Of a DNA stretch of 64,000 bases, positions 33,061-44,406 are shown in pieces. The notes beneath the pieces were generated by a model, which saw only the letters and a list, made by a program, of their open reading frames with translations, was not told the origin of the DNA and did not search any database. Source of the stretch: Kiritimatiellia bacterium (GTDB lineage Bacteria > Verrucomicrobiota > Kiritimatiellia > RFP12 > UBA1067); assembly GCA_045537795.1 (NCBI GenBank), contig JAZSQE010000065.1, positions 101,418-165,417 on the forward strand, written 5' to 3'. Position 1 is the stretch's first letter; each line of letters begins with the position of its first letter. The translations under genes and the position numbers were made by a program.

Positions 33061-34071
33061 ATGCCACTTACTCTGCTTCAACGCGCATCTGAAGGTCTTA
33101 CAAAATGGACACCGGCATTTGTTGCCGCCGTGGCCGTTTTCACGTACTTTTCCCCCGACGCCTTCGCCTGGGTTAAAGGTCAGGCGCAAACCTCGATTCT
33201 CGGCTTCATCATGCTGACGATGGGGCTCACTCTTTCGAAAGAGGACTTTCGCATTCTTATCTCTCGCCCGATCGACATGTTGATCGGCGTAACGGCGCAA
33301 TATCTGCTGATGCCGCTCATCGCCTGGACGATCGTCAAAACTTTCTCCCTGCCCCATTCTGTCGCCGCAGGGATTTTACTCGTCGGCTGCTGCCCGGGCG
33401 GCGTATCGTCCAATATCATGAGCTTTATCTGCAAAGGCGATGTCGCGTTTTCCGTTGGAATGACAACCGTGACAACACTTCTCGCCCCGCTGACGACACC
33501 GCTTCTAATGCTTCATCTAGCCGGCGAAAGCGTGGATGTGGACGCGACAGGAATGTTTAAATCGATATTAATCGTAACCATATTGCCTGTGGCTCTCGGG
33601 TTCGGATTGAATACGGCATTCGGCAGGAAGAACCGCTTTGCGGAAGTTAAGAAAACATTGCCCGCCGCAGCAGTCATTGGCCTCGCCTGCATCGTAGGCG
33701 GAGTCGTTTCAGCTCATGGTCAAAAGATCGTCGCGTCAGGTGGTGTCATTTTCGCCGCGGTTCTGCTACATAACGCGCTCGGTTACATTGCCGGATATGC
33801 AACAGGCGTTTTTGCGAAATTTTCAAAGGCCAAATGCCGCACGGTTTCCATCGAAATCGGCATGCAGAATGCAGGGCTTGCGACAGTCTTGTCGGCGAAA
33901 CACTTCCCTGCGATGCCGGAAGCAGCAATCGTTTCAGCCGTCTCATGCGTATGGCACTCGATCTCCGGCGCGCTCCTCGCAGGCATCTTCAATCTTCTCG
34001 ACAATGTCGTGCGAGGAGACGGCGGCGAATGGTTCAGGGGGAGGCGGAGAAGGCCTCGGCTCAGTCCGTGA
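33061..34071 (+). CDS. bile acid:sodium symporter (BASS/SBF) family transporter
   Basis: It has multiple TM segments and the motifs LTMGLTLSKEDF and GCCPGGVSSNIM, typical of the SBF family. The last 11 nt overlap the convergent DeoR gene. Confidence 0.8.
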   Translation: MPLTLLQRASEGLTKWTPAFVAAVAVFTYFSPDAFAWVKGQAQTSILGFIMLTMGLTLSKEDFRILISRPIDMLIGVTAQYLLMPLIAWTIVKTFSLPHSVAAGILLVGCCPGGVSSNIMSFICKGDVAFSVGMTTVTTLLAPLTTPLLMLHLAGESVDVDATGMFKSILIVTILPVALGFGLNTAFGRKNRFAEVKKTLPAAAVIGLACIVGGVVSAHGQKIVASGGVIFAAVLLHNALGYIAGYATGVFAKFSKAKCRTVSIEIGMQNAGLATVLSAKHFPAMPEAAIVSAVSCVWHSISGALLAGIFNLLDNVVRGDGGEWFRGRRRRPRLSP

Positions 34072-34771
34072 TGATTTTGTCGAAGCAGCCGCGCGCGGCG
34101 ATGCGGTAGAGACCTTTGCGCCCGATTTTGGTGTGATCCACGACGAGATAGCGCTTGTCGGCCGCGTCGAGAACCTTGCGAAGCATTTCGGCCTGACGCT
34201 CATGATTTGTCGTGACGTTCTTCTCGTCGACGCCGAAGCATGAGATGAACGCCGTGGTGAGGTTGAAGTGCGAGAGCTGCTCGATGGCCGACATCCCGAG
34301 AATCGAATTCAGCTGCAGATCGTAATTCCCTCCGAGGCCTATCAGCACCCAGTGCGCCGGCATCTTGCGGAACAGGTTTATGATCGCTATCGAATTTGTG
34401 ATGATCGTCAGGTGATCCAGCCTCATGTGCATCAGCTGAAGGGCCATCTCGTACATCGTCGTGGAGGAGTCGAGAAATATGATGTCGCTTTCTCCCACCA
34501 GAGTCAGGGCTTTCGCCGTCGCGCATGCTTTTTGCGAGCGAAGTCGCGTAACGCGGTTCAGGTAGTTCGCCGAATCCGATCTCGTTTCGGGCGCTTCATT
34601 GTAGACTATTCCGCCGCGGACGCGCTCGACGGCGTCTCTGCTGGCGAGAACGGCGATATCGCGGTGGGCGGTGGCGGAACTGATTTTGAATTTCGACATC
34701 AGTTCTTTAACCGTGCAGGTCTTTTTCTGCTTCAGAAAAGAAAGCATTCTGTGTATGCGCAGCGTGTCCAT
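34061..34771 (-). CDS. DeoR/GlpR family transcriptional regulator
   Basis: The N-terminal HTH reads RIHRMLSFLKQKKTCTVKELMSKFKISSATAHRDIAVL. A C-terminal DeoR sugar-binding domain follows. It is divergent from the sugar-kinase operon. Confidence 0.85.
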   Translation of the reverse strand: MDTLRIHRMLSFLKQKKTCTVKELMSKFKISSATAHRDIAVLASRDAVERVRGGIVYNEAPETRSDSANYLNRVTRLRSQKACATAKALTLVGESDIIFLDSSTTMYEMALQLMHMRLDHLTIITNSIAIINLFRKMPAHWVLIGLGGNYDLQLNSILGMSAIEQLSHFNLTTAFISCFGVDEKNVTTNHERQAEMLRKVLDAADKRYLVVDHTKIGRKGLYRIAARGCFDKIITD

Positions 34772-34800
34772 GGAAAGATTGTATCAAATACGAGGGATTT

Positions 34801-34847
34801 TCTCAAATCGTCTCATGGCTTATCATGGAATGTTGCGCAAGTCTCAT
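34801..34847 (+). promoter_or_regulatory. phased TCTCAT-type direct repeats (candidate DeoR-family operator)
   Basis: Copies are TCTCAA at 34801, TCTCAT at 34811, TATCAT at 34821 and TCTCAT at 34842, with start-to-start spacings of 10, 10 and 21 nt. The last copy sits 11 nt upstream of TATAAT. Confidence 0.4.
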
Positions 34848-34855
34848 TTTGTATT

Positions 34856-34864
34856 TGTTATAAT
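34856..34864 (+). promoter_or_regulatory. TGTTATAAT extended -10 box, 7 nt upstream of ATG 34872 (leaderless candidate)
   Basis: The sequence is tgtTATAATcgtcacgATG, with no Shine-Dalgarno sequence. Confidence 0.45.
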
Positions 34865-34871
34865 CGTCACG

Positions 34872-35786
34872 ATGATAAACGCAGATTACATAGGTTTGGG
34901 GTTTTGCTCCAACGATCACATCGCGCTCTTGCCGTTCATCCCGATGGATACGAAGGTCAAGATGGTTTCCCGCGCAATCACGGGAGGAGGGCCGGCGGCC
35001 AACTCTACGGCGGCCGCGGCGGCGCTTGGAATGTCGGCGGCTTTCGTCGGCACGGTCGGTGACGATGCCGACGGACGTATGATACTCGACGATTTCGCCC
35101 GGCAGGGCGTCGACACGTCTATGGTCAGGATTCGCAAAGGCGCTACGAGCGCGATCGCCTATCTCTGGATCGACGAGCCTACCGGCAACCGCTCGTGCGC
35201 TTGGACGCGGGAGGGGCTCGACGAGTTGACCGCAGAGGAGATCGATTCTCCGGCGATCGCCGCCGCGAAAGTGCTCCATCTCGACGGACACAACGCCGCC
35301 GGCGCGATCGCCGCCGCGAAGGTTGCTCGCGAATCGGGCGTCACGGTCATGTACGACGCCGGAACACACCGCGACGGAATGTATGAACTGCTGGAACTCG
35401 CGGATCTGCTCATCTGTTCTGAGGAGTTTATCCTGAAGCTCACAGGCCTTTCCGACGCGGAGGAGGCCGTGCGTCAGGTCTGGGCGAAGTACCGTCCGAA
35501 GGTATGCGGCGCGACGATGGGCGCGCGCGGGTCGATGTGTTTCGACGGAAAGGACTTCGTGAAGTGTCCGGCGTTCCGCGTGGAGAAGGTCGTGGACACG
35601 ACCGGATGCGGAGACCTTTTCCATACGGGTTTCGCCGTGCGCTGGCTCGAGACGCGCGATATTCTTGAATGTCAGCGCTTCGGTGCGGCCGTATCGGCCA
35701 TCAAGTGCCGCGGGTTGTCGGGCCGTCCGCCGAGTGCGCCGACCCGGGCGGAAGTCGAGGGATTTTTAAGCGAAAGGAGTAACTGA
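34872..35786 (+). CDS. PfkB/ribokinase-family sugar(-phosphate) kinase
   Basis: It has GGGPAANS, the VGDD...G motif and the C-terminal VVDTTGCGDLFHTGF (PfkB signature 2). The start is at MINADYIGLG; the upstream part of ORF 34671 overlaps the DeoR gene and is rejected. Confidence 0.8.
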   Translation: MINADYIGLGFCSNDHIALLPFIPMDTKVKMVSRAITGGGPAANSTAAAAALGMSAAFVGTVGDDADGRMILDDFARQGVDTSMVRIRKGATSAIAYLWIDEPTGNRSCAWTREGLDELTAEEIDSPAIAAAKVLHLDGHNAAGAIAAAKVARESGVTVMYDAGTHRDGMYELLELADLLICSEEFILKLTGLSDAEEAVRQVWAKYRPKVCGATMGARGSMCFDGKDFVKCPAFRVEKVVDTTGCGDLFHTGFAVRWLETRDILECQRFGAAVSAIKCRGLSGRPPSAPTRAEVEGFLSERSN

Positions 35787-35787
35787 A

Positions 35788-37152
35788 ATGTTCAAAATAG
35801 GCTATCTGCCGCTCAGCAAGGTCAATTGGACGAACGATACGCTTGAGGCGGCCCGCGAAAACGCGACGGCGTTTCTCAAGACGCTCCCCGATGTCGAGGT
35901 GATCGCGCCCGACCACATGCTCGCTCTCGAAGGCGAGGCGATCGAGGTTCTCGATCAGTGGGAGAAGGACCGCCCCGACCTCATCGTCGCGCACTTTCTG
36001 ACGTTTTCGCTCGGTGTCGTTCCGCCGATGTTCGCGCAGCGCCTCAAGGTGCCGATACTCCTGTGGTCGCAGCCCGAGCCCGATCCGAAGGGCGGAAGGC
36101 TCCAGAACAACTCGTTCTGCGCCGCGAACATGAACGCGCACCACATGTGGCGCCTCGGCATCCCCTACTTCTACGTCCACGCGCAGGCAGGGACGGAGGA
36201 GGCGGAGAAGAAGCTGATGAAGCAGATCCGCGTCGCGCAGACGATGAAGGAGCTCGGCAGGATGCGCATCGGACTCATCGGCGGACGCGTTCCCGGGTTC
36301 TTCACGAGCTGCGTGGACGAAATGATGCTGCGCCGCACGCTCGGGCCCGAGGTCAAGATTATCACCGAGCATGAACTTTTCACCGTCGCGAAAAACCTCA
36401 CGCCGGACGAAGTCGCGAAGGGGATGGCGATCATCGACGAGGATCTGAAGACACCTTCCTCCGACGCGCCGTGCAGCGCGCAGAAGGAGAAATCCGCCCG
36501 CCTCATCGCGGCCGTGATGAAGCTCAAGGAGAAGTTTTTCGTCGATACGTTCGCGATGCGCTGCTGGCCGGAGGTGATCTTGAGCGAGTTCTACGGAATC
36601 GCCGTCTGCTCGACGCTCGGACACCTGACGAACCACGGCTGCCTCACCGCCTGCGAGGGCGACATCTACGGCGCGGTGATGATGCGCATAGGCCAGACGA
36701 TTTCTGGCGAGCTGCCGTTCTTCTGCGACCTGATAATGTGCGAGGGCGATCACGGAACGGTCTGGCACTGCGGCGCCGCGCCGTGCGCGCTCGCCAAGCC
36801 GGGCTGCACGCCCGAGCTCCACTGCTCCGCGACGGTCGAAGGCGGCGGCGTGAAGGGCTGCACGGGCGAGTTTCCGCTCAAACCCGGACGCGTCACGCTG
36901 GCGCGTCTCGGCGAGACGCGCGACGGCAGGGGCTTTAGAATGCTCGTCTGCCCCGGTACGGGAATCGACACCGATCTCTTCGTGCGCGGCACCCCGCTCA
37001 ACGTAAAGTTCGACGCCGGCTGCGAGGCCGTCCGCCGCGAGGTGATGGAGAACGGCTGGGAGCACCACTATGCGCTCATGTACGGCGACAGGGTGGAGGA
37101 GCTCACCGCGCTCTGCCGCAACATGAACATCGAGATGCATCTCGTGAAGTGA
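35788..37152 (+). CDS. L-fucose/L-arabinose isomerase-family protein
   Basis: It is 454 aa. The start is MFKIGYLPLS, and the ACEGDIYGAVMMRIG motif resembles the COG2407 isomerase family. The call is by recollection of family features only. Confidence 0.5.
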   Translation: MFKIGYLPLSKVNWTNDTLEAARENATAFLKTLPDVEVIAPDHMLALEGEAIEVLDQWEKDRPDLIVAHFLTFSLGVVPPMFAQRLKVPILLWSQPEPDPKGGRLQNNSFCAANMNAHHMWRLGIPYFYVHAQAGTEEAEKKLMKQIRVAQTMKELGRMRIGLIGGRVPGFFTSCVDEMMLRRTLGPEVKIITEHELFTVAKNLTPDEVAKGMAIIDEDLKTPSSDAPCSAQKEKSARLIAAVMKLKEKFFVDTFAMRCWPEVILSEFYGIAVCSTLGHLTNHGCLTACEGDIYGAVMMRIGQTISGELPFFCDLIMCEGDHGTVWHCGAAPCALAKPGCTPELHCSATVEGGGVKGCTGEFPLKPGRVTLARLGETRDGRGFRMLVCPGTGIDTDLFVRGTPLNVKFDAGCEAVRREVMENGWEHHYALMYGDRVEELTALCRNMNIEMHLVK

Positions 37153-37219
37153 TTTACCGTCGAAAGCGCTCGAGGTCAATCGGCGGCTTTCGGCATCAAT
37201 CGACAATAGAGGGAAAACA

Positions 37220-38035
37220 ATGGCAAACCTGCGCATCAAACTCAGCCCGGTTGAAGGCTACAACAAGATATTCGACGTCGGCGAATACGGCATGAAACTC
37301 ACGAAGTTCGGTCTTCTCAAACTCTCCGCGGGCGCGACTTACGAAGGCGACAGCGGCGAGACGGAAGTCGCGCTCGTCCTCATCGGCGGCAATTTCGCCG
37401 CGTCCGTCCGGAGCGGCGGCAATGATGCCGCAGAAGAGTTCGAAGTGACCGACGGACGCAAATCGCCGTTCACCGGCAAACCCCACTGCATGTATCTGCC
37501 GCGCCGCACGAAGTACGTTATCACCGCGCTTTCCGATGTCGAACTCGCGTACAACGCTTCGCCCGTCACGCGCGACACGGCGAAACCGACGCTCATAAGG
37601 CCGGAGGACACGCGCCACATCGCGCTCGGGAAGGATAACTGGACGCGCACTTCGGAGATCATTCTCGACGAGAAGTTCGACTCCGAACACTTCTACATCG
37701 GCGAGGGCATGATTCCGTCCGGCAACTGGTCGGGTTATCCTTCACACCGCCACGACGAGAACAATCCGCCCGCCGAACTTGATATGGAGGAGACGTACTT
37801 CTATCTCTTCGATCCGCCGCAGGGCTTCGGATTCCAGAGCGTGTACAAGCCTGACGGTTCGCTGAACGAGGCGTACCGCGTGCAGAACTACGATACTGTC
37901 GCGATCGCCGAGGGGTACCATCCGCTCGTCGGCGCTCCGGGCTATCAGATGTATTATCTCTGGACGATGGCGGGAGCTCAAGGTCGCGGGCTGATCTCGG
38001 CAATGGATCCGGCGCACGTCTGGGTGAAAGGGTGA
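37220..38035 (+). CDS. iolB: 5-deoxy-glucuronate isomerase (IolB family cupin)
   Basis: It is 271 aa. SGNWSGYPSHRHDENNPPAELDMEETYFYLFDPPQGFGFQSVY...GYHPLVGAPGY closely follows the Bacillus IolB core (GNWSSYPPHKHD...EEIYYH...GQGFVFQRVY...GYHPV). Confidence 0.8.
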   Translation: MANLRIKLSPVEGYNKIFDVGEYGMKLTKFGLLKLSAGATYEGDSGETEVALVLIGGNFAASVRSGGNDAAEEFEVTDGRKSPFTGKPHCMYLPRRTKYVITALSDVELAYNASPVTRDTAKPTLIRPEDTRHIALGKDNWTRTSEIILDEKFDSEHFYIGEGMIPSGNWSGYPSHRHDENNPPAELDMEETYFYLFDPPQGFGFQSVYKPDGSLNEAYRVQNYDTVAIAEGYHPLVGAPGYQMYYLWTMAGAQGRGLISAMDPAHVWVKG

Positions 38036-38039
38036 GAGA

Positions 38040-39548
38040 TTGAAAAAACTGCTGCTGGGAATCGACTACGGCACCGGCGGGTGCAAGGTGACGGTCATAG
38101 ACGAGGACGGCTCGTTCGTCGGCGAAGCGTCGACCGAGTTTCCGACGCGGCATGATCGCCCCGGCTGGAGCGAACAAAATCCGCAGGATTGGTGGAACGC
38201 GCTAAAGAGCTCTCTTGAAAAGCTTGCGGCGAAGGGCGTCGATCTCAAAGCCCTCGCCGCATGCGCGCTTGACGGTTCGACTCACAACGCCGTTCTTCTT
38301 GACGGCGGGTTCAAGCCTGTGCGGCTCACGATCATGTGGACCGATCAGCGCGCGACGGCCGAATGCGCGATGTTGAAGGCCGAATGGGGCGAAAAGATTT
38401 TTTCGAAGTGCTTCCAGATGCCCGCGCCGACGTGGACTTTGCCGCAGATGATGTGGCTCAAGGCGAACGAGCCCGAGGTGCTCGGCAGGACGAAGCATGT
38501 TCTTTTCGTAAAAGACTACATCCGCTATCTGCTTACCGGTGAATCGGCCACCGACTACATAGAAGCCGAGGGCACGCTTTTTTTCGACGTCGCCGAAAAG
38601 CGCTGGGACGAGGAGCTTGTCGCGCTCGCGGGGCTTGAAACCTGCAAGCTGCCCCGGATCATAAAACCGACGGATGTCGCCGGGCGCGTGACGCGCGAGG
38701 CTGCGGCGTTTACCGCTCTTCCCGAAGGGCTGCCGGTCGTGTGCGGCTCTTCCGACAGCGCGGTGGAGGACTACGGCGCGGGCGCGGTAGAGCCGGGCGA
38801 TCTCATCATCAAGCTCGCCACGGCTGGCAACGTCAACGCGATGACCGCCGAGGCGCATCCGCATCCCAAGACGCTCACGTATTCGCATATCGTGCCCGGG
38901 ATGTGGTATTCTGTATCGGCCACGAACGCCGCGGCCCTCTGCATGAGGTGGTTCAGGGATGCGTTTTACGCGGGATGGGGAACGGGGAAGAGGGAAGAGG
39001 GGATGGGGAATTTGTATTCCCTGATAGACGTGGAAGCCGCGTCGTCGCCGGTCGGCGCCAACGGGGTGGCGTTCCATCCTTATCTGCAGGGCGAACGCTG
39101 CCCGTATTGGGATCCGGATCTGCGAGCCTCGTTCACGGGCGTTTCGATTTCGTCGACGCGCGGGGACTTTGCGCGCGCGCTGATGGAAGGTGTGGCGTTT
39201 TCTCTGCGCGACTGTTACCGCACGCTCGAGGAGATGCGGCTTGAAGTGAAGCGGATTTTCCTCATCGGCGGCGGTGCGCGCTCGCGTCTTTGGAGCGAAA
39301 TCGTCTCGAATGTCTTCAACAGCACGGCGGTAGTGCCGCGCCGCGGCGATGCGAGTTTCGGCTCGTGTCTTTTGGCGGGCGTAGGCGTGGGGATTTTCGG
39401 CGATGTGAAAAGCGCCGTGGAGAAGTGTCTCGATATCGAAAGGACGATAGAGCCGGATCCCGCGCTCGCGGCCGGATACGAAAAACTCTTCGCGCGTTAC
39501 CGCCGTATACACGATGCGCTGGCGCCGGTCTACGCCCGGCGGGGATGA
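38040..39548 (+). CDS. FGGY-family carbohydrate kinase (xylulokinase-like)
   Basis: It has a TTG start. LLGIDYGTGGCKVTVID is the FGGY N-terminal motif. It also has WWNAL and the C-terminal GGGARSRLW. Confidence 0.8.
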   Translation: MKKLLLGIDYGTGGCKVTVIDEDGSFVGEASTEFPTRHDRPGWSEQNPQDWWNALKSSLEKLAAKGVDLKALAACALDGSTHNAVLLDGGFKPVRLTIMWTDQRATAECAMLKAEWGEKIFSKCFQMPAPTWTLPQMMWLKANEPEVLGRTKHVLFVKDYIRYLLTGESATDYIEAEGTLFFDVAEKRWDEELVALAGLETCKLPRIIKPTDVAGRVTREAAAFTALPEGLPVVCGSSDSAVEDYGAGAVEPGDLIIKLATAGNVNAMTAEAHPHPKTLTYSHIVPGMWYSVSATNAAALCMRWFRDAFYAGWGTGKREEGMGNLYSLIDVEAASSPVGANGVAFHPYLQGERCPYWDPDLRASFTGVSISSTRGDFARALMEGVAFSLRDCYRTLEEMRLEVKRIFLIGGGARSRLWSEIVSNVFNSTAVVPRRGDASFGSCLLAGVGVGIFGDVKSAVEKCLDIERTIEPDPALAAGYEKLFARYRRIHDALAPVYARRG

Positions 39549-39591
39549 CGCCGCGACCTGCGACGGCCAAAAGAAATCGCGATGCGGATTC

Positions 39592-39638
39592 TCTCATTTT
39601 TTCTCATAAACAATCACAACGGCACCTACAACTCTCAT
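39592..39638 (+). promoter_or_regulatory. phased TCTCAT direct repeats (candidate DeoR-family operator, internal promoter)
   Basis: TCTCAT occurs at 39592, 39602 and 39633, with spacings of 10 and 31 nt. The last copy is exactly 11 nt upstream of TATAAT 39650, the same geometry as at 34842/34859. Confidence 0.4.
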
Positions 39639-39649
39639 GTGTTCTGATG

Positions 39650-39655
39650 TATAAT
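39650..39655 (+). promoter_or_regulatory. TATAAT -10 box of candidate internal promoter, embedded in palindrome ATGTATAATACAT
   Basis: It lies in the 125-140 nt intergenic gap inside an otherwise tightly packed gene run. The -10 sits in a 6-1-6 palindrome (39647-39659). Confidence 0.4.
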
Positions 39656-39688
39656 ACATGACATCACAAGGCTATGCAAGGAATACAA

Positions 39689-41134
39689 ATGAAAATCAAA
39701 ACAGACAGTTACATGTTCGAAATGATTCGGACGGAGCTGACCGATGCGGTCGGCGACAAGAATGTCGATGTTAAATTCGCGGACAAGTTCGGACATTCCA
39801 TCGACTATTACTGGATTCCCGAGATGTGGCACGACCGGGGCAAAGAATGTCCAAAGGCCGATTTTATCGTCCATCCCGGATCGACCGAAGAGGTTTCGAG
39901 GGTCATGAAAATCGCCAACCAGTACAAGATACCCGTTGTACCGTGGGGCGGCGGCTCCGGTTCGCAGGGCGGGGCGCTTCCGATTTACGGCGGCATTATT
40001 CTCGACATGAAGAGAATGAACAGATATTACGGGGTCGACAAGGAGAGCTACACGGTGCGGTGCCAGACCGGCATAATCGCGCGTCATCTCGAATGGAACT
40101 GCAACAAAGAAGGTTTTTCGACGATGCATCTTCCCGCGTCGATCGCATGCGCCACGATCGGAGGTTTTCTCGCGCACCGCGGAACGGGAGTGCTTTCGAC
40201 GAAGTACGGCAAGATTGAAGATATGGTGATGAGCCTCGAGGTCGTCACCCCTTCGGGCGAGATCATCCGCACGCTTCCCGTGCCGCGCCACGCCTCGGGG
40301 CCGGATCTCACGATGCTTTTCCTCGGCAGCGAGGGGACTCTCGGCGTCATAACCGAAGTCACGCTCAAGGTCCACCCCCAGCCCGAAGCGCGTGAATTCC
40401 GCGCATACATCTTCAAGGATTTCCACACCGCGATGCAGGCCGGCGCGACGCTTATGCGCTCGAGGCTCGGGCCTTGCGCCATGCGTCTTTATGATGAAGT
40501 CGAAACGAAAACCCACGTGTCGAAGGTCTTCGGCATCGATCTCGACAAGGGCGCTTATCTCGTGTTCGGCTTCGACGGACGCAAAGATATCGTCGCGTGC
40601 CAGATGAAGGCGGCGAGAGAAATCATGGAGAAGCAGTACAAGGGCAAGGATCTCGGCGCAAAAGGCGGGGAATGGTGGTGGGAGAACAAATACAAGTTCT
40701 TCTATCCGGGATACATGTTCCATGTTCCGCAGGCGTTCGGAACGCTTGATACGGTGGCGGATTTCGCGCATATCGAGAAAGTTTACTGGGCGATGAAGAA
40801 TGTCGTCAACAAGGAGTTCCCTGACGCCAGATTCATCGGGCATTTCTCGCACTGGTATGAATGGGGCTGCATGCTTTACGCGCGCTTCATCTTCCCCGGC
40901 GACAAGGTTCCGCCGAACGAGCGCGAGGCGGCGGCGCTTTACAATGCCGTGTGGGACAAGGCGATCCGCGCGGCGATCGCCAACGGCGGCGTGATCAACG
41001 AACATCACGGTGTCGGACTCAAGCTCGGGCGGTACGTGAAGGATCTTTACGGTACGGCGATGCCCGTCCTCGAGGGGATCAAGCGTCAGCTCGACCCGAA
41101 CGGCATTATGAATCCCGGCAAGATGGGGCTCTGA
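39689..41134 (+). CDS. FAD-binding oxidoreductase (GlcD / alkyl-DHAP-synthase-like FAD-linked oxidase)
   Basis: The FAD-binding PCMH motif reads IVHPGSTEEVSRVMKIANQYKIPVVPWGGGSGSQGG...ILDMKRMN. The start is set at the ATG preceded by AAGGAA; the alternative ATG is at 39674. Confidence 0.75.
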   Translation: MKIKTDSYMFEMIRTELTDAVGDKNVDVKFADKFGHSIDYYWIPEMWHDRGKECPKADFIVHPGSTEEVSRVMKIANQYKIPVVPWGGGSGSQGGALPIYGGIILDMKRMNRYYGVDKESYTVRCQTGIIARHLEWNCNKEGFSTMHLPASIACATIGGFLAHRGTGVLSTKYGKIEDMVMSLEVVTPSGEIIRTLPVPRHASGPDLTMLFLGSEGTLGVITEVTLKVHPQPEAREFRAYIFKDFHTAMQAGATLMRSRLGPCAMRLYDEVETKTHVSKVFGIDLDKGAYLVFGFDGRKDIVACQMKAAREIMEKQYKGKDLGAKGGEWWWENKYKFFYPGYMFHVPQAFGTLDTVADFAHIEKVYWAMKNVVNKEFPDARFIGHFSHWYEWGCMLYARFIFPGDKVPPNEREAAALYNAVWDKAIRAAIANGGVINEHHGVGLKLGRYVKDLYGTAMPVLEGIKRQLDPNGIMNPGKMGL

Positions 41135-41170
41135 CGGAATCAGCATTGAGATTGAAAAAGGAGATTTGAA

Positions 41171-42208
41171 ATGAATATAGACAAGTACAACGACGCTGTG
41201 ATGAATTGCCGGTTCTGTTTCATGTGCAGGCATCTTTCGGCGGTCGGGAACGTTCGGTTTACCGAAGTTGACACTCCGCGTGTTCGCGCGGCCATGATAT
41301 ACGGGCTCAGAACCGGCACGAATTCGTTCGATGATGGCGATTTCGTCGACGCTCTCTACAGACAGGATCTTTCTGCCTGCTGCGTGCATCATTGCGTGAA
41401 CCACTACGATGAGAACGCCCTCGCGCTCGCCGCGCGCGCCGATGTCGTGGAGGCGGGCAAGGCTCCGCAAGCCGTCGCCGGACTGGCCGCGAAATACATC
41501 AAGTCCGCAGATTGGAAAATCGAAGGGAAGAAAGGCGACGTCGCCTGGTTCCTCGACGAAAGCACCGCCGGAGACAAGACGGCCGTCGCCGCCGCACGGA
41601 AGCTCTTCGCCGCGGCGAAGGTCGCCCCGAGAATCGTCACCGGCGGCTCGATCGGCAAGGCGCTCAAGGTGCTCGGCTATTTGAAAGAGGCCGGCGAGAT
41701 CGCCGCCAGATTCGCCGCGTTCCTGAAGGACGCGGGAGTGAAGACGCTCGTCGTGTCGAATCCCGCCGCGTTGAGCGCGCTCAAGCAGGATTATCCCGGT
41801 TTCGGCGTCGAAGTTCCCTGCGAAGTGAAGTCGGTGTCGGCCTTCATTCTTGAAAAGAAGGTGAAGTTCTCCAAGGCCGCACCTCGGGTCTATCCGATCG
41901 CCGATGACTTTGTGCGCAACTATCTGGGCTGCGACTGCCACACGAGACTGCTCGCGGCGCTCAAGGCGAAAACCGTGCCCTTCGGCACGAACGACGAGGA
42001 GTCGTACAACTGCGGTGAGGGGGCGGTGGTGCTCGACAAACTTCATCCCGATCTTGTGAAGGATCTGGCGCAGTATGTCGCGGCGCGTTCGGACGACCCG
42101 AAGCGCGATATGATCGTCGTCGGTTCCGTCTACACAAAGCGCGCGCTTGTCAGATACGGCGGGCTCAAAGCTGTTACGTACGACGAGCTTGCGGCGGCGT
42201 GCCTCTGA
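41171..42208 (+). CDS. (Fe-S)-binding / cysteine-rich partner subunit (GlcF/GlpC/LutA-like)
   Basis: It has an N-terminal CRFCFMC cysteine cluster plus later Cys motifs. It sits immediately after the FAD oxidase, as in GlcD-GlcF type pairs. The RBS is AAAGGAGA. Confidence 0.45.
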   Translation: MNIDKYNDAVMNCRFCFMCRHLSAVGNVRFTEVDTPRVRAAMIYGLRTGTNSFDDGDFVDALYRQDLSACCVHHCVNHYDENALALAARADVVEAGKAPQAVAGLAAKYIKSADWKIEGKKGDVAWFLDESTAGDKTAVAAARKLFAAAKVAPRIVTGGSIGKALKVLGYLKEAGEIAARFAAFLKDAGVKTLVVSNPAALSALKQDYPGFGVEVPCEVKSVSAFILEKKVKFSKAAPRVYPIADDFVRNYLGCDCHTRLLAALKAKTVPFGTNDEESYNCGEGAVVLDKLHPDLVKDLAQYVAARSDDPKRDMIVVGSVYTKRALVRYGGLKAVTYDELAAACL

Positions 42209-42264
42209 AAGCGTTTTGAAAACCGAAGCGGCGCGCGCAGCGCGCGCCGCGCGAGAACGGAAGG

Positions 42265-43104
42265 ATGTCTCATGCCATGGCGTTGGTGAACATGAAGGAG
42301 ATGCTGAACGGGGCGAGGCGGGCCAAAAAGGCCGTCGGCGCGTTCAATGTCACGAATTACGAAACGGCCGCCGCGGTGCTCAAAGCGGCGCAGGCCGAGA
42401 ACGAGCCTGTTATCATACAGCTTTACATGCGCCTGTTCGATTCGAACAAGGCGTATGATCTTTGCGGTATGCTGCAGCGTCTCGCATTCCGGTCAAAAGT
42501 TCCGGTCGCGCTCCATCTCGACCACGGTTCGACAGTCAGGCAGGCTATGGACGCTTTGGCGTGGGGATACACGTCCGTCATGTATGACGGCTCGCGCGAT
42601 GCGTTTGACGAAAACGTTAAATGGACGAAGCACGTCGCCGATTATGCGCACGCTCTAGGAGCCACGTGCGAGGGCGAAATCGGCCATGTCGCCCAGGGCG
42701 ACGAGACGGCTCTTACCGATGTCGATGAGGCGGTACGCTTCGCGACGGCCACCGGAGTCGACGCGCTCGCCGTGTCTATAGGTACGGCGCACGGATATTA
42801 CAAGGCCGAGCCGAAGCTCGATATCGGGCGTTGCGCCGCGATCGCCGATGCGCTGCCGGACACGCCGCTGGTTCTTCACGGCGGCAGCGGAACGCCCCTC
42901 GCGGACGTCCGCCGCGCGATAGAAAGCGGGATAGCGAAAGTGAATATCGCGACCGAGTTTCTCGACACCTACATAAAATCCACGCTCAAAGTCTACGGAG
43001 AACTGGGCGGGGCGTTCGTTCCTCCCGACAAACTTGCCGATCCGATCGTTGACGAATGCGCTTCGCACGTGCAGCGACTGGTGCGGTTTTTCGCCGGAAG
43101 GTAA
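42265..43104 (+). CDS. class II (metal-dependent) ketose-bisphosphate aldolase, FBA/tagatose-BP/IolJ family
   Basis: Motifs are GAFNVTNYE, ALHLDHG, VMYDGS, EGEIGHV, SIGTAHG and LVLHGGSG. The start could instead be the in-frame ATG at 42277. Confidence 0.8.
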   Translation: MSHAMALVNMKEMLNGARRAKKAVGAFNVTNYETAAAVLKAAQAENEPVIIQLYMRLFDSNKAYDLCGMLQRLAFRSKVPVALHLDHGSTVRQAMDALAWGYTSVMYDGSRDAFDENVKWTKHVADYAHALGATCEGEIGHVAQGDETALTDVDEAVRFATATGVDALAVSIGTAHGYYKAEPKLDIGRCAAIADALPDTPLVLHGGSGTPLADVRRAIESGIAKVNIATEFLDTYIKSTLKVYGELGGAFVPPDKLADPIVDECASHVQRLVRFFAGR

Positions 43105-43143
43105 AAGTCCGCAATCCGTTGCCGGAATACGTCAGGAGGAGAA

Positions 43144-44406
43144 ATGCCAGAAATCAAGGCGGACAGAAATTACAAGTGGGTGATGCTCGCGCTGCTCGCC
43201 TTTACCTATTTTCTTATGCATGCGACGCGGCAGATATTCAACGCGTCGCTGCCCGATATCAAAGCGACGCTCTCGGGCGCCAGCGACGCCCAGTGGGGCT
43301 TCACCCGCACGGCGTTTCTCTTCGCGTACGGGCTGGTCGTGCCTCTTGCCGGAATCGCGGCCGACATGCTTCGCCGCAAGTGGGTCGTTGTCGTCGGCGC
43401 TCTGCTTTTTTCCGTGAGCGTGTTCGGCACCGGCTATGTCGACGGATTCGTCGGGATGCTCGTCATGTACGGGGTCATGAACGGCATCGGCCAGTGCATG
43501 ATACCGGCATCGGCCAGTTCGCTTATCGCGCAATATCATCAGGAAACCCGCTCGACGGCGTTGTCGATCTATCAGACCGGGCTTTATTTCGGCATTATCG
43601 TCGCCAGCGCTCTGGCCGGAGTTTTCGGGGCTGCCGCGACAGACGGCTGGCGGTATGCTTTTTGGATTTTCGGGGCTATCGGCATCGTCTGGTCGTTCAT
43701 ACTCGTGTTTGCGCTGCGCGACACGCCGCCGCTCGTTCAGAGCCAATCGCAGGACCGGATCGAGCGCGCCAGTTTCAAGGAGGCGGCTCTTGCGATGGTC
43801 TCCAAGCCTTCGGCGGTTCTCTTGACGTTCGCGTTCGGCATGCTCGTTTTCGGGTCCAATTGTTTCCGCACGTTCCTGCCGCTTTTTCTCCGGCAGGGGC
43901 CGGAACTCGGCGGCTTTTCCCTCAGCCCCGCCTCGGCGGCGCTTCACTCCGTGGTTTGGTTCTATATCGGTTCATTTGTCGGAATCGCCGCGGGAGCGAG
44001 ACTTTCGGACAGGCTCGTTCATCGCTTCCCCGCCATACGCATCAACATGCTTATCATCGGACTTGCCGTTTCCGCTCCGGCGATGGTGGCTATGGTGTAT
44101 ATGCCGAATCTCTTCCTCTGCTGTTTTATGACGTTTATCTTCGGCTTGGGCGGCGGCCTTTTCGACTGCTCGCTATATTCGGGGCTTTTCGAAGTCGTCG
44201 CGCCGCGCTACAGAGCCGCGGCGATGGGGGTTTACCTTTGCGGCGCGTTTCTCATCGGCTGCCCGGCGACCGCCGTTTTAGGTTATATCGGAGAACATTT
44301 CTCCTACCAGTTCGGCATCGCGCTTTTCGGCGGGACGTATGCGGCGGGAGCGCTCGCCGTTCTTCTGGCTCGTGTTTTCTTTTTCGGCAGGGACCGCGTT
44401 TCGTAG
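43144..44406 (+). CDS. MFS transporter
   Basis: It has about 12 predicted TM helices. The pattern LAFTYFLMHATRQIF...AADMLRRKW resembles anion:cation symporter-type MFS proteins. The RBS is AGGAGGAGA. Confidence 0.8.
   Translation: MPEIKADRNYKWVMLALLAFTYFLMHATRQIFNASLPDIKATLSGASDAQWGFTRTAFLFAYGLVVPLAGIAADMLRRKWVVVVGALLFSVSVFGTGYVDGFVGMLVMYGVMNGIGQCMIPASASSLIAQYHQETRSTALSIYQTGLYFGIIVASALAGVFGAAATDGWRYAFWIFGAIGIVWSFILVFALRDTPPLVQSQSQDRIERASFKEAALAMVSKPSAVLLTFAFGMLVFGSNCFRTFLPLFLRQGPELGGFSLSPASAALHSVVWFYIGSFVGIAAGARLSDRLVHRFPAIRINMLIIGLAVSAPAMVAMVYMPNLFLCCFMTFIFGLGGGLFDCSLYSGLFEVVAPRYRAAAMGVYLCGAFLIGCPATAVLGYIGEHFSYQFGIALFGGTYAAGALAVLLARVFFFGRDRVS

Follow-up and report, generated by a model that had tools for sequence, protein, structure and literature searches.

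The window analysed here is a 64 kb stretch of DNA from a Kiritimatiellia bacterium. An ORF check at positions 34061-44406 reveals a nine-gene locus, in which one DeoR gene diverges from eight co-directional genes separated by intergenic gaps of 1-125 bp (Table 1). The upstream flank carries a V/A-ATPase A-like gene, pgi and an SBF transporter gene, the downstream flank a CT398-like gene and a Mur ligase gene. The genes on both flanks are unrelated to the locus, and the limits given in the initial annotation are therefore right. Pfam and NCBIfam also bear out every family named there, except for the Cys-rich protein, which has no sequence match in Pfam, NCBIfam or the PDB.

Table 1. Features of the locus (window coordinates).
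Feature	Position	Strand	Evidence
DeoR-family repressor	34061..34771	-	PF08220 HTH_DeoR + PF00455 DeoRC; divergent from operon
Divergent control region, putative operator boxes	34772..34871	.	Promoter/box inspection
PfkB-family sugar kinase	34872..35786	+	PF00294, 148.9 bits; mechanical ORF from 34671
FucI/AraA-superfamily aldose-ketose isomerase	35788..37152	+	PF02952 Fucose_iso_C, weak, 33.6 bits
IolB/KduI-family bicupin isomerase	37220..38035	+	PF04962, 242 bits
FGGY kinase, xylulokinase-like by score	38040..39548	+	PF00370 + PF02782
Predicted AGPS/YgcU-type FAD-binding flavoprotein	39674..41134	+	PF01565 + PF02913
Cys-rich 345-aa flavoprotein partner	41171..42208	+	Pfam-less; predicted HdrB/LutA/EtfD-like fold
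Class II (metal-dependent) ketose-phosphate aldolase	42265..43104	+	PF01116, 270.9 bits
MFS transporter, presumed substrate importer	43144..44406	+	PF07690

The gene order PfkB-FucI-IolB-FGGY-FAD-partner-aldolase recurs with short gaps and 43-97% identity in at least 13 independent loci of gut and rumen PVC bacteria, including Kiritimatiellae, Victivallales, Oligosphaeraceae and other Lentisphaeria. This is a single conserved catabolic locus, as proposed earlier: one unit and not a chance adjacency, and a real DeoR-controlled sugar-catabolism operon. The DeoR protein reaches no NCBIfam equivalog cutoff; about 20 related loci carry a DeoR gene at the equivalent place (37-67% identity), and in one locus, L003, a LacI regulator takes over. 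The DeoR gene has a sigma-70-like promoter at 34806-34778. A GATTnTnTCAAAT-like box occurs three times (34777-34789, 34796-34808 and, inverted, 34851-34865), and these copies may serve as operator boxes. TATAAT stands immediately 5' of the ATG at 34872, which is the likely start of the PfkB gene within the ORF 34671-35786, since the Pfam match begins at residue 80. Several Kiritimatiellae loci, as well as L003, have an orthologous MFS gene within or beside the operon. The NCBIfam matches of this transporter are weak only, and its best PDB matches turned out to be Spinster-type MFS proteins (6e8j, 67.7 bits), with just 24 bits for DgoT.

The PfkB kinase, probably a ketose 1-kinase, has its best PDB match in the sulfofructose kinase YihV (7ag6, 101.7 bits, 32% identical across the whole protein); ribokinase and ketohexokinase come next. 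The isomerase shows no PDB match by sequence and a single NCBIfam match, the sulfoquinovose isomerase SftI, for which it scores 257.9 bits where 700 would be required. Its AF2 model (pLDDT 84, pTM 0.87) is closer to AraA, which acts on galacto-configured sugars, than to FucI, with TM scores of 0.83-0.85 against L-arabinose isomerases and 0.73 against L-fucose isomerase; E290, D314, H327 and H426/H427 are invariant and may coordinate the metal. The aldolase stays below every NCBIfam equivalog cutoff and matches ketose-bisphosphate aldolase/KbaY (174-177 bits), 7ncc and 7nc7 (161-163 bits, both deposited as class II fructose-bisphosphate aldolases) and YdjI (141 bits, 38% identity) in the PDB. 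The His/Glu columns for metal binding and catalysis do not vary in it. Relative to GatY, KbaY and YdjI, the mobile loop is shortened by 9 residues. The isomerase, the kinase and the aldolase belong to the three families of SqvD, SqiK and SqiA from the sulfo-EMP2 pathway, and a trio of the sulfo-EMP2 type is a simpler reading of them than a lower-inositol set. SftI/SqvD, the sole named relatives of the isomerase, and YihV, the solved protein closest to the kinase, act on a C6-anionic hexose, and class II aldolases that cleave anionic-tailed monophosphates, SqiA and YdjI, do exist. The tests for sulfoquinovose signatures nevertheless came out negative. Of the sulfonate triad K27-R138-N109 of YihV, the kinase retains K alone.

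Among the proteins of the operon, the flavoprotein shows the strongest conservation (75-97% identity). AGPS is its best PDB match (2uuu, 185 bits), with D-lactate dehydrogenase lower at 144 bits. The motifs MRLYD, GHFSHWYEWGCMLY and NEHHGVG align with R419, Y578 and H616/H617 of AGPS, and these R, Y and HH residues are invariant across 12 homologues ranging from PVC bacteria to E. coli YgcU. The protein lacks GHxGDGNxH/GEHGIG, the metal motif of D-2-hydroxyacid dehydrogenases. Judged by these motifs, the enzyme is of the alkyl-DHAP-synthase (AGPS)/YgcU type, not of the GlcD/D-lactate-dehydrogenase type. The GlcD/GlcF logic suggested earlier thus holds as ancestry only, because the 2-hydroxyacid metal motif has been lost and the AGPS catalytic residues are present.

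The gene of the Cys-rich partner always comes after the FAD gene. It has an N-terminal Cys cluster; C13xxC16xxC19, C71 and C75 are invariant and C281 is nearly so. Its AF2 model is confident over residues 95-345, and Foldseek retrieves EtfD (9ojn, E 1e-6), LutA (9a6l) and HdrB (5odc), which indicates an HdrB/LutA/EtfD-like fold. The description of this partner as GlcF-like therefore survives at the level of the predicted fold, although true GlcF/HdrB proteins have CCG cysteine motifs that are for the most part missing here. The family is small, with 324 representatives at E<=1e-3.

The cupin, FGGY kinase, flavoprotein and partner form a separate module shared with other phyla, which was invisible to the initial annotation. 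In the related loci the cupin gene always adjoins the FucI-like gene and precedes FGGY. A Mesorhizobium plasmid carries FGGY-FAD-partner without the cupin (43%, 47% and 24% identity, respectively), and Cupin_2-FGGY-FAD-partner is found in the same order in Chloroflexota (FGGY 37% identical) and Acidobacteriota. The partner homologues of Mesorhizobium and Chloroflexota do not have the cysteines. Neighbours in Chloroflexota and Acidobacteriota include a split transketolase, a Zn-ADH with idonate-5-dehydrogenase-like hits, an ApnL-like or Amidohydro_2 lactonase, a GFO dehydrogenase and IclR/GntR regulators, a neighbourhood with a sugar-acid flavour; an apiosidase also occurs among module neighbours outside PVC. 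The C-C cleaving enzyme is exchanged, with transketolase in place of PfkB plus aldolase, but the module itself is retained. Weaker flavoprotein homologues are paired with FGGY kinases in E. coli (ygcU/ygcE), Roseibium, Shinella, Novosphingobium and Enterococcus. The operon FGGY scores 393.6 against the cutoff of 380 for XylB (TIGR01312), and E. coli YgcE and the apulose kinase AplK are each only 25% identical to it.

We infer the substrate, the step order and every reaction of the following scheme, to which a probability of roughly 35% is assigned: an EMP-like split of an acidic plant-wall hexose, a uronate, into DHAP and a C3 aldehyde, the latter being salvaged by the module. The MFS protein would import an aldohexose that does not allow phosphorylation at C6, most likely a hexuronate, for example D-galacturonate or D-glucuronate. 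The FucI/AraA-fold isomerase would convert it to the 2-ketose, the PfkB kinase would phosphorylate C1, and the class II aldolase would cut C3-C4 to give DHAP and a C3 2-hydroxy-aldehyde, in the uronate case tartronate semialdehyde. The IolB-type cupin could then turn the 2-hydroxy-aldehyde into a hydroxy-ketone, and FGGY could phosphorylate the new primary hydroxyl to yield R-CO-CH2-OP, a DHAP analogue. The flavoprotein may act on the carbon adjoining the carbonyl by redox or AGPS-like covalent N5-flavin chemistry, and its product could join central metabolism. Both activities after which the IolB/KduI family is named, 5-deoxy-glucuronate isomerase and 5-keto-4-deoxyuronate isomerase, have uronates as substrates. 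The genes around these enzymes likewise lend the operons an acid-sugar and pectin character: glycosidase genes of GH28, GH30 and GH31 are inserted within Kiritimatiellae operons, together with a GH2 whose best solved relative is a beta-galacturonidase, followed by beta-glucuronidases, and Victivallales operons have a GH78 rhamnosidase on their flanks as well as an SGNH/GxDLY esterase.

Several observations speak against this scheme. The transporter is Spinster-like and not of the hexuronate/ACS type, and the gene order does not split cleanly into the EMP-like line and the module. The tartronate-semialdehyde route requires a net two-electron reduction, for which one would hardly expect an AGPS-type flavoprotein and for which the partner outside PVC offers no Fe-S cysteines; C3-acid kinases, moreover, are not known from the FGGY family. 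The glycosidases embedded in the operons come from mixed families and so single out no one sugar. The embedded GH2 does not have the N-x-K carboxylate motif of beta-glucuronidases. The substrate could equally be a branched pentose, as the apiosidase and apionate-lactonase-like neighbours of the module elsewhere suggest. The GH78 rhamnosidase beside the Victivallales operons and a true lactate racemase encoded in locus L037 give a hint of 6-deoxy sugars.

The operon is not an ordinary inositol pathway: the cupin, whose sole PDB match is the uncharacterised IolB-like protein 2qjv, just passes the IolB cutoff (TIGR04378, 207.9 against 205) as the only member of the proposed inositol set to reach the cutoff of its family, the PfkB kinase is not IolC (TIGR04382, 97.9 against 300), so that the claimed lower inositol enzyme set reduces to IolB, and iolG, iolE, iolD and iolA are, as claimed, absent from the window.

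A uronate or deoxy-sugar feeding an Iol-like cleavage, as put forward in the initial annotation, is retained as the best class of explanation. No published pathway that combines these genes turned up in full-text literature searches, in line with the initial annotation, which knew of none. In general, the pairing of a kinase with an ether-lipid-synthase-like flavoenzyme constitutes a widespread, uncharacterised module, and the operon as a whole would represent a route for a plant-cell-wall-derived sugar in gut and rumen PVC bacteria that is new to the literature.

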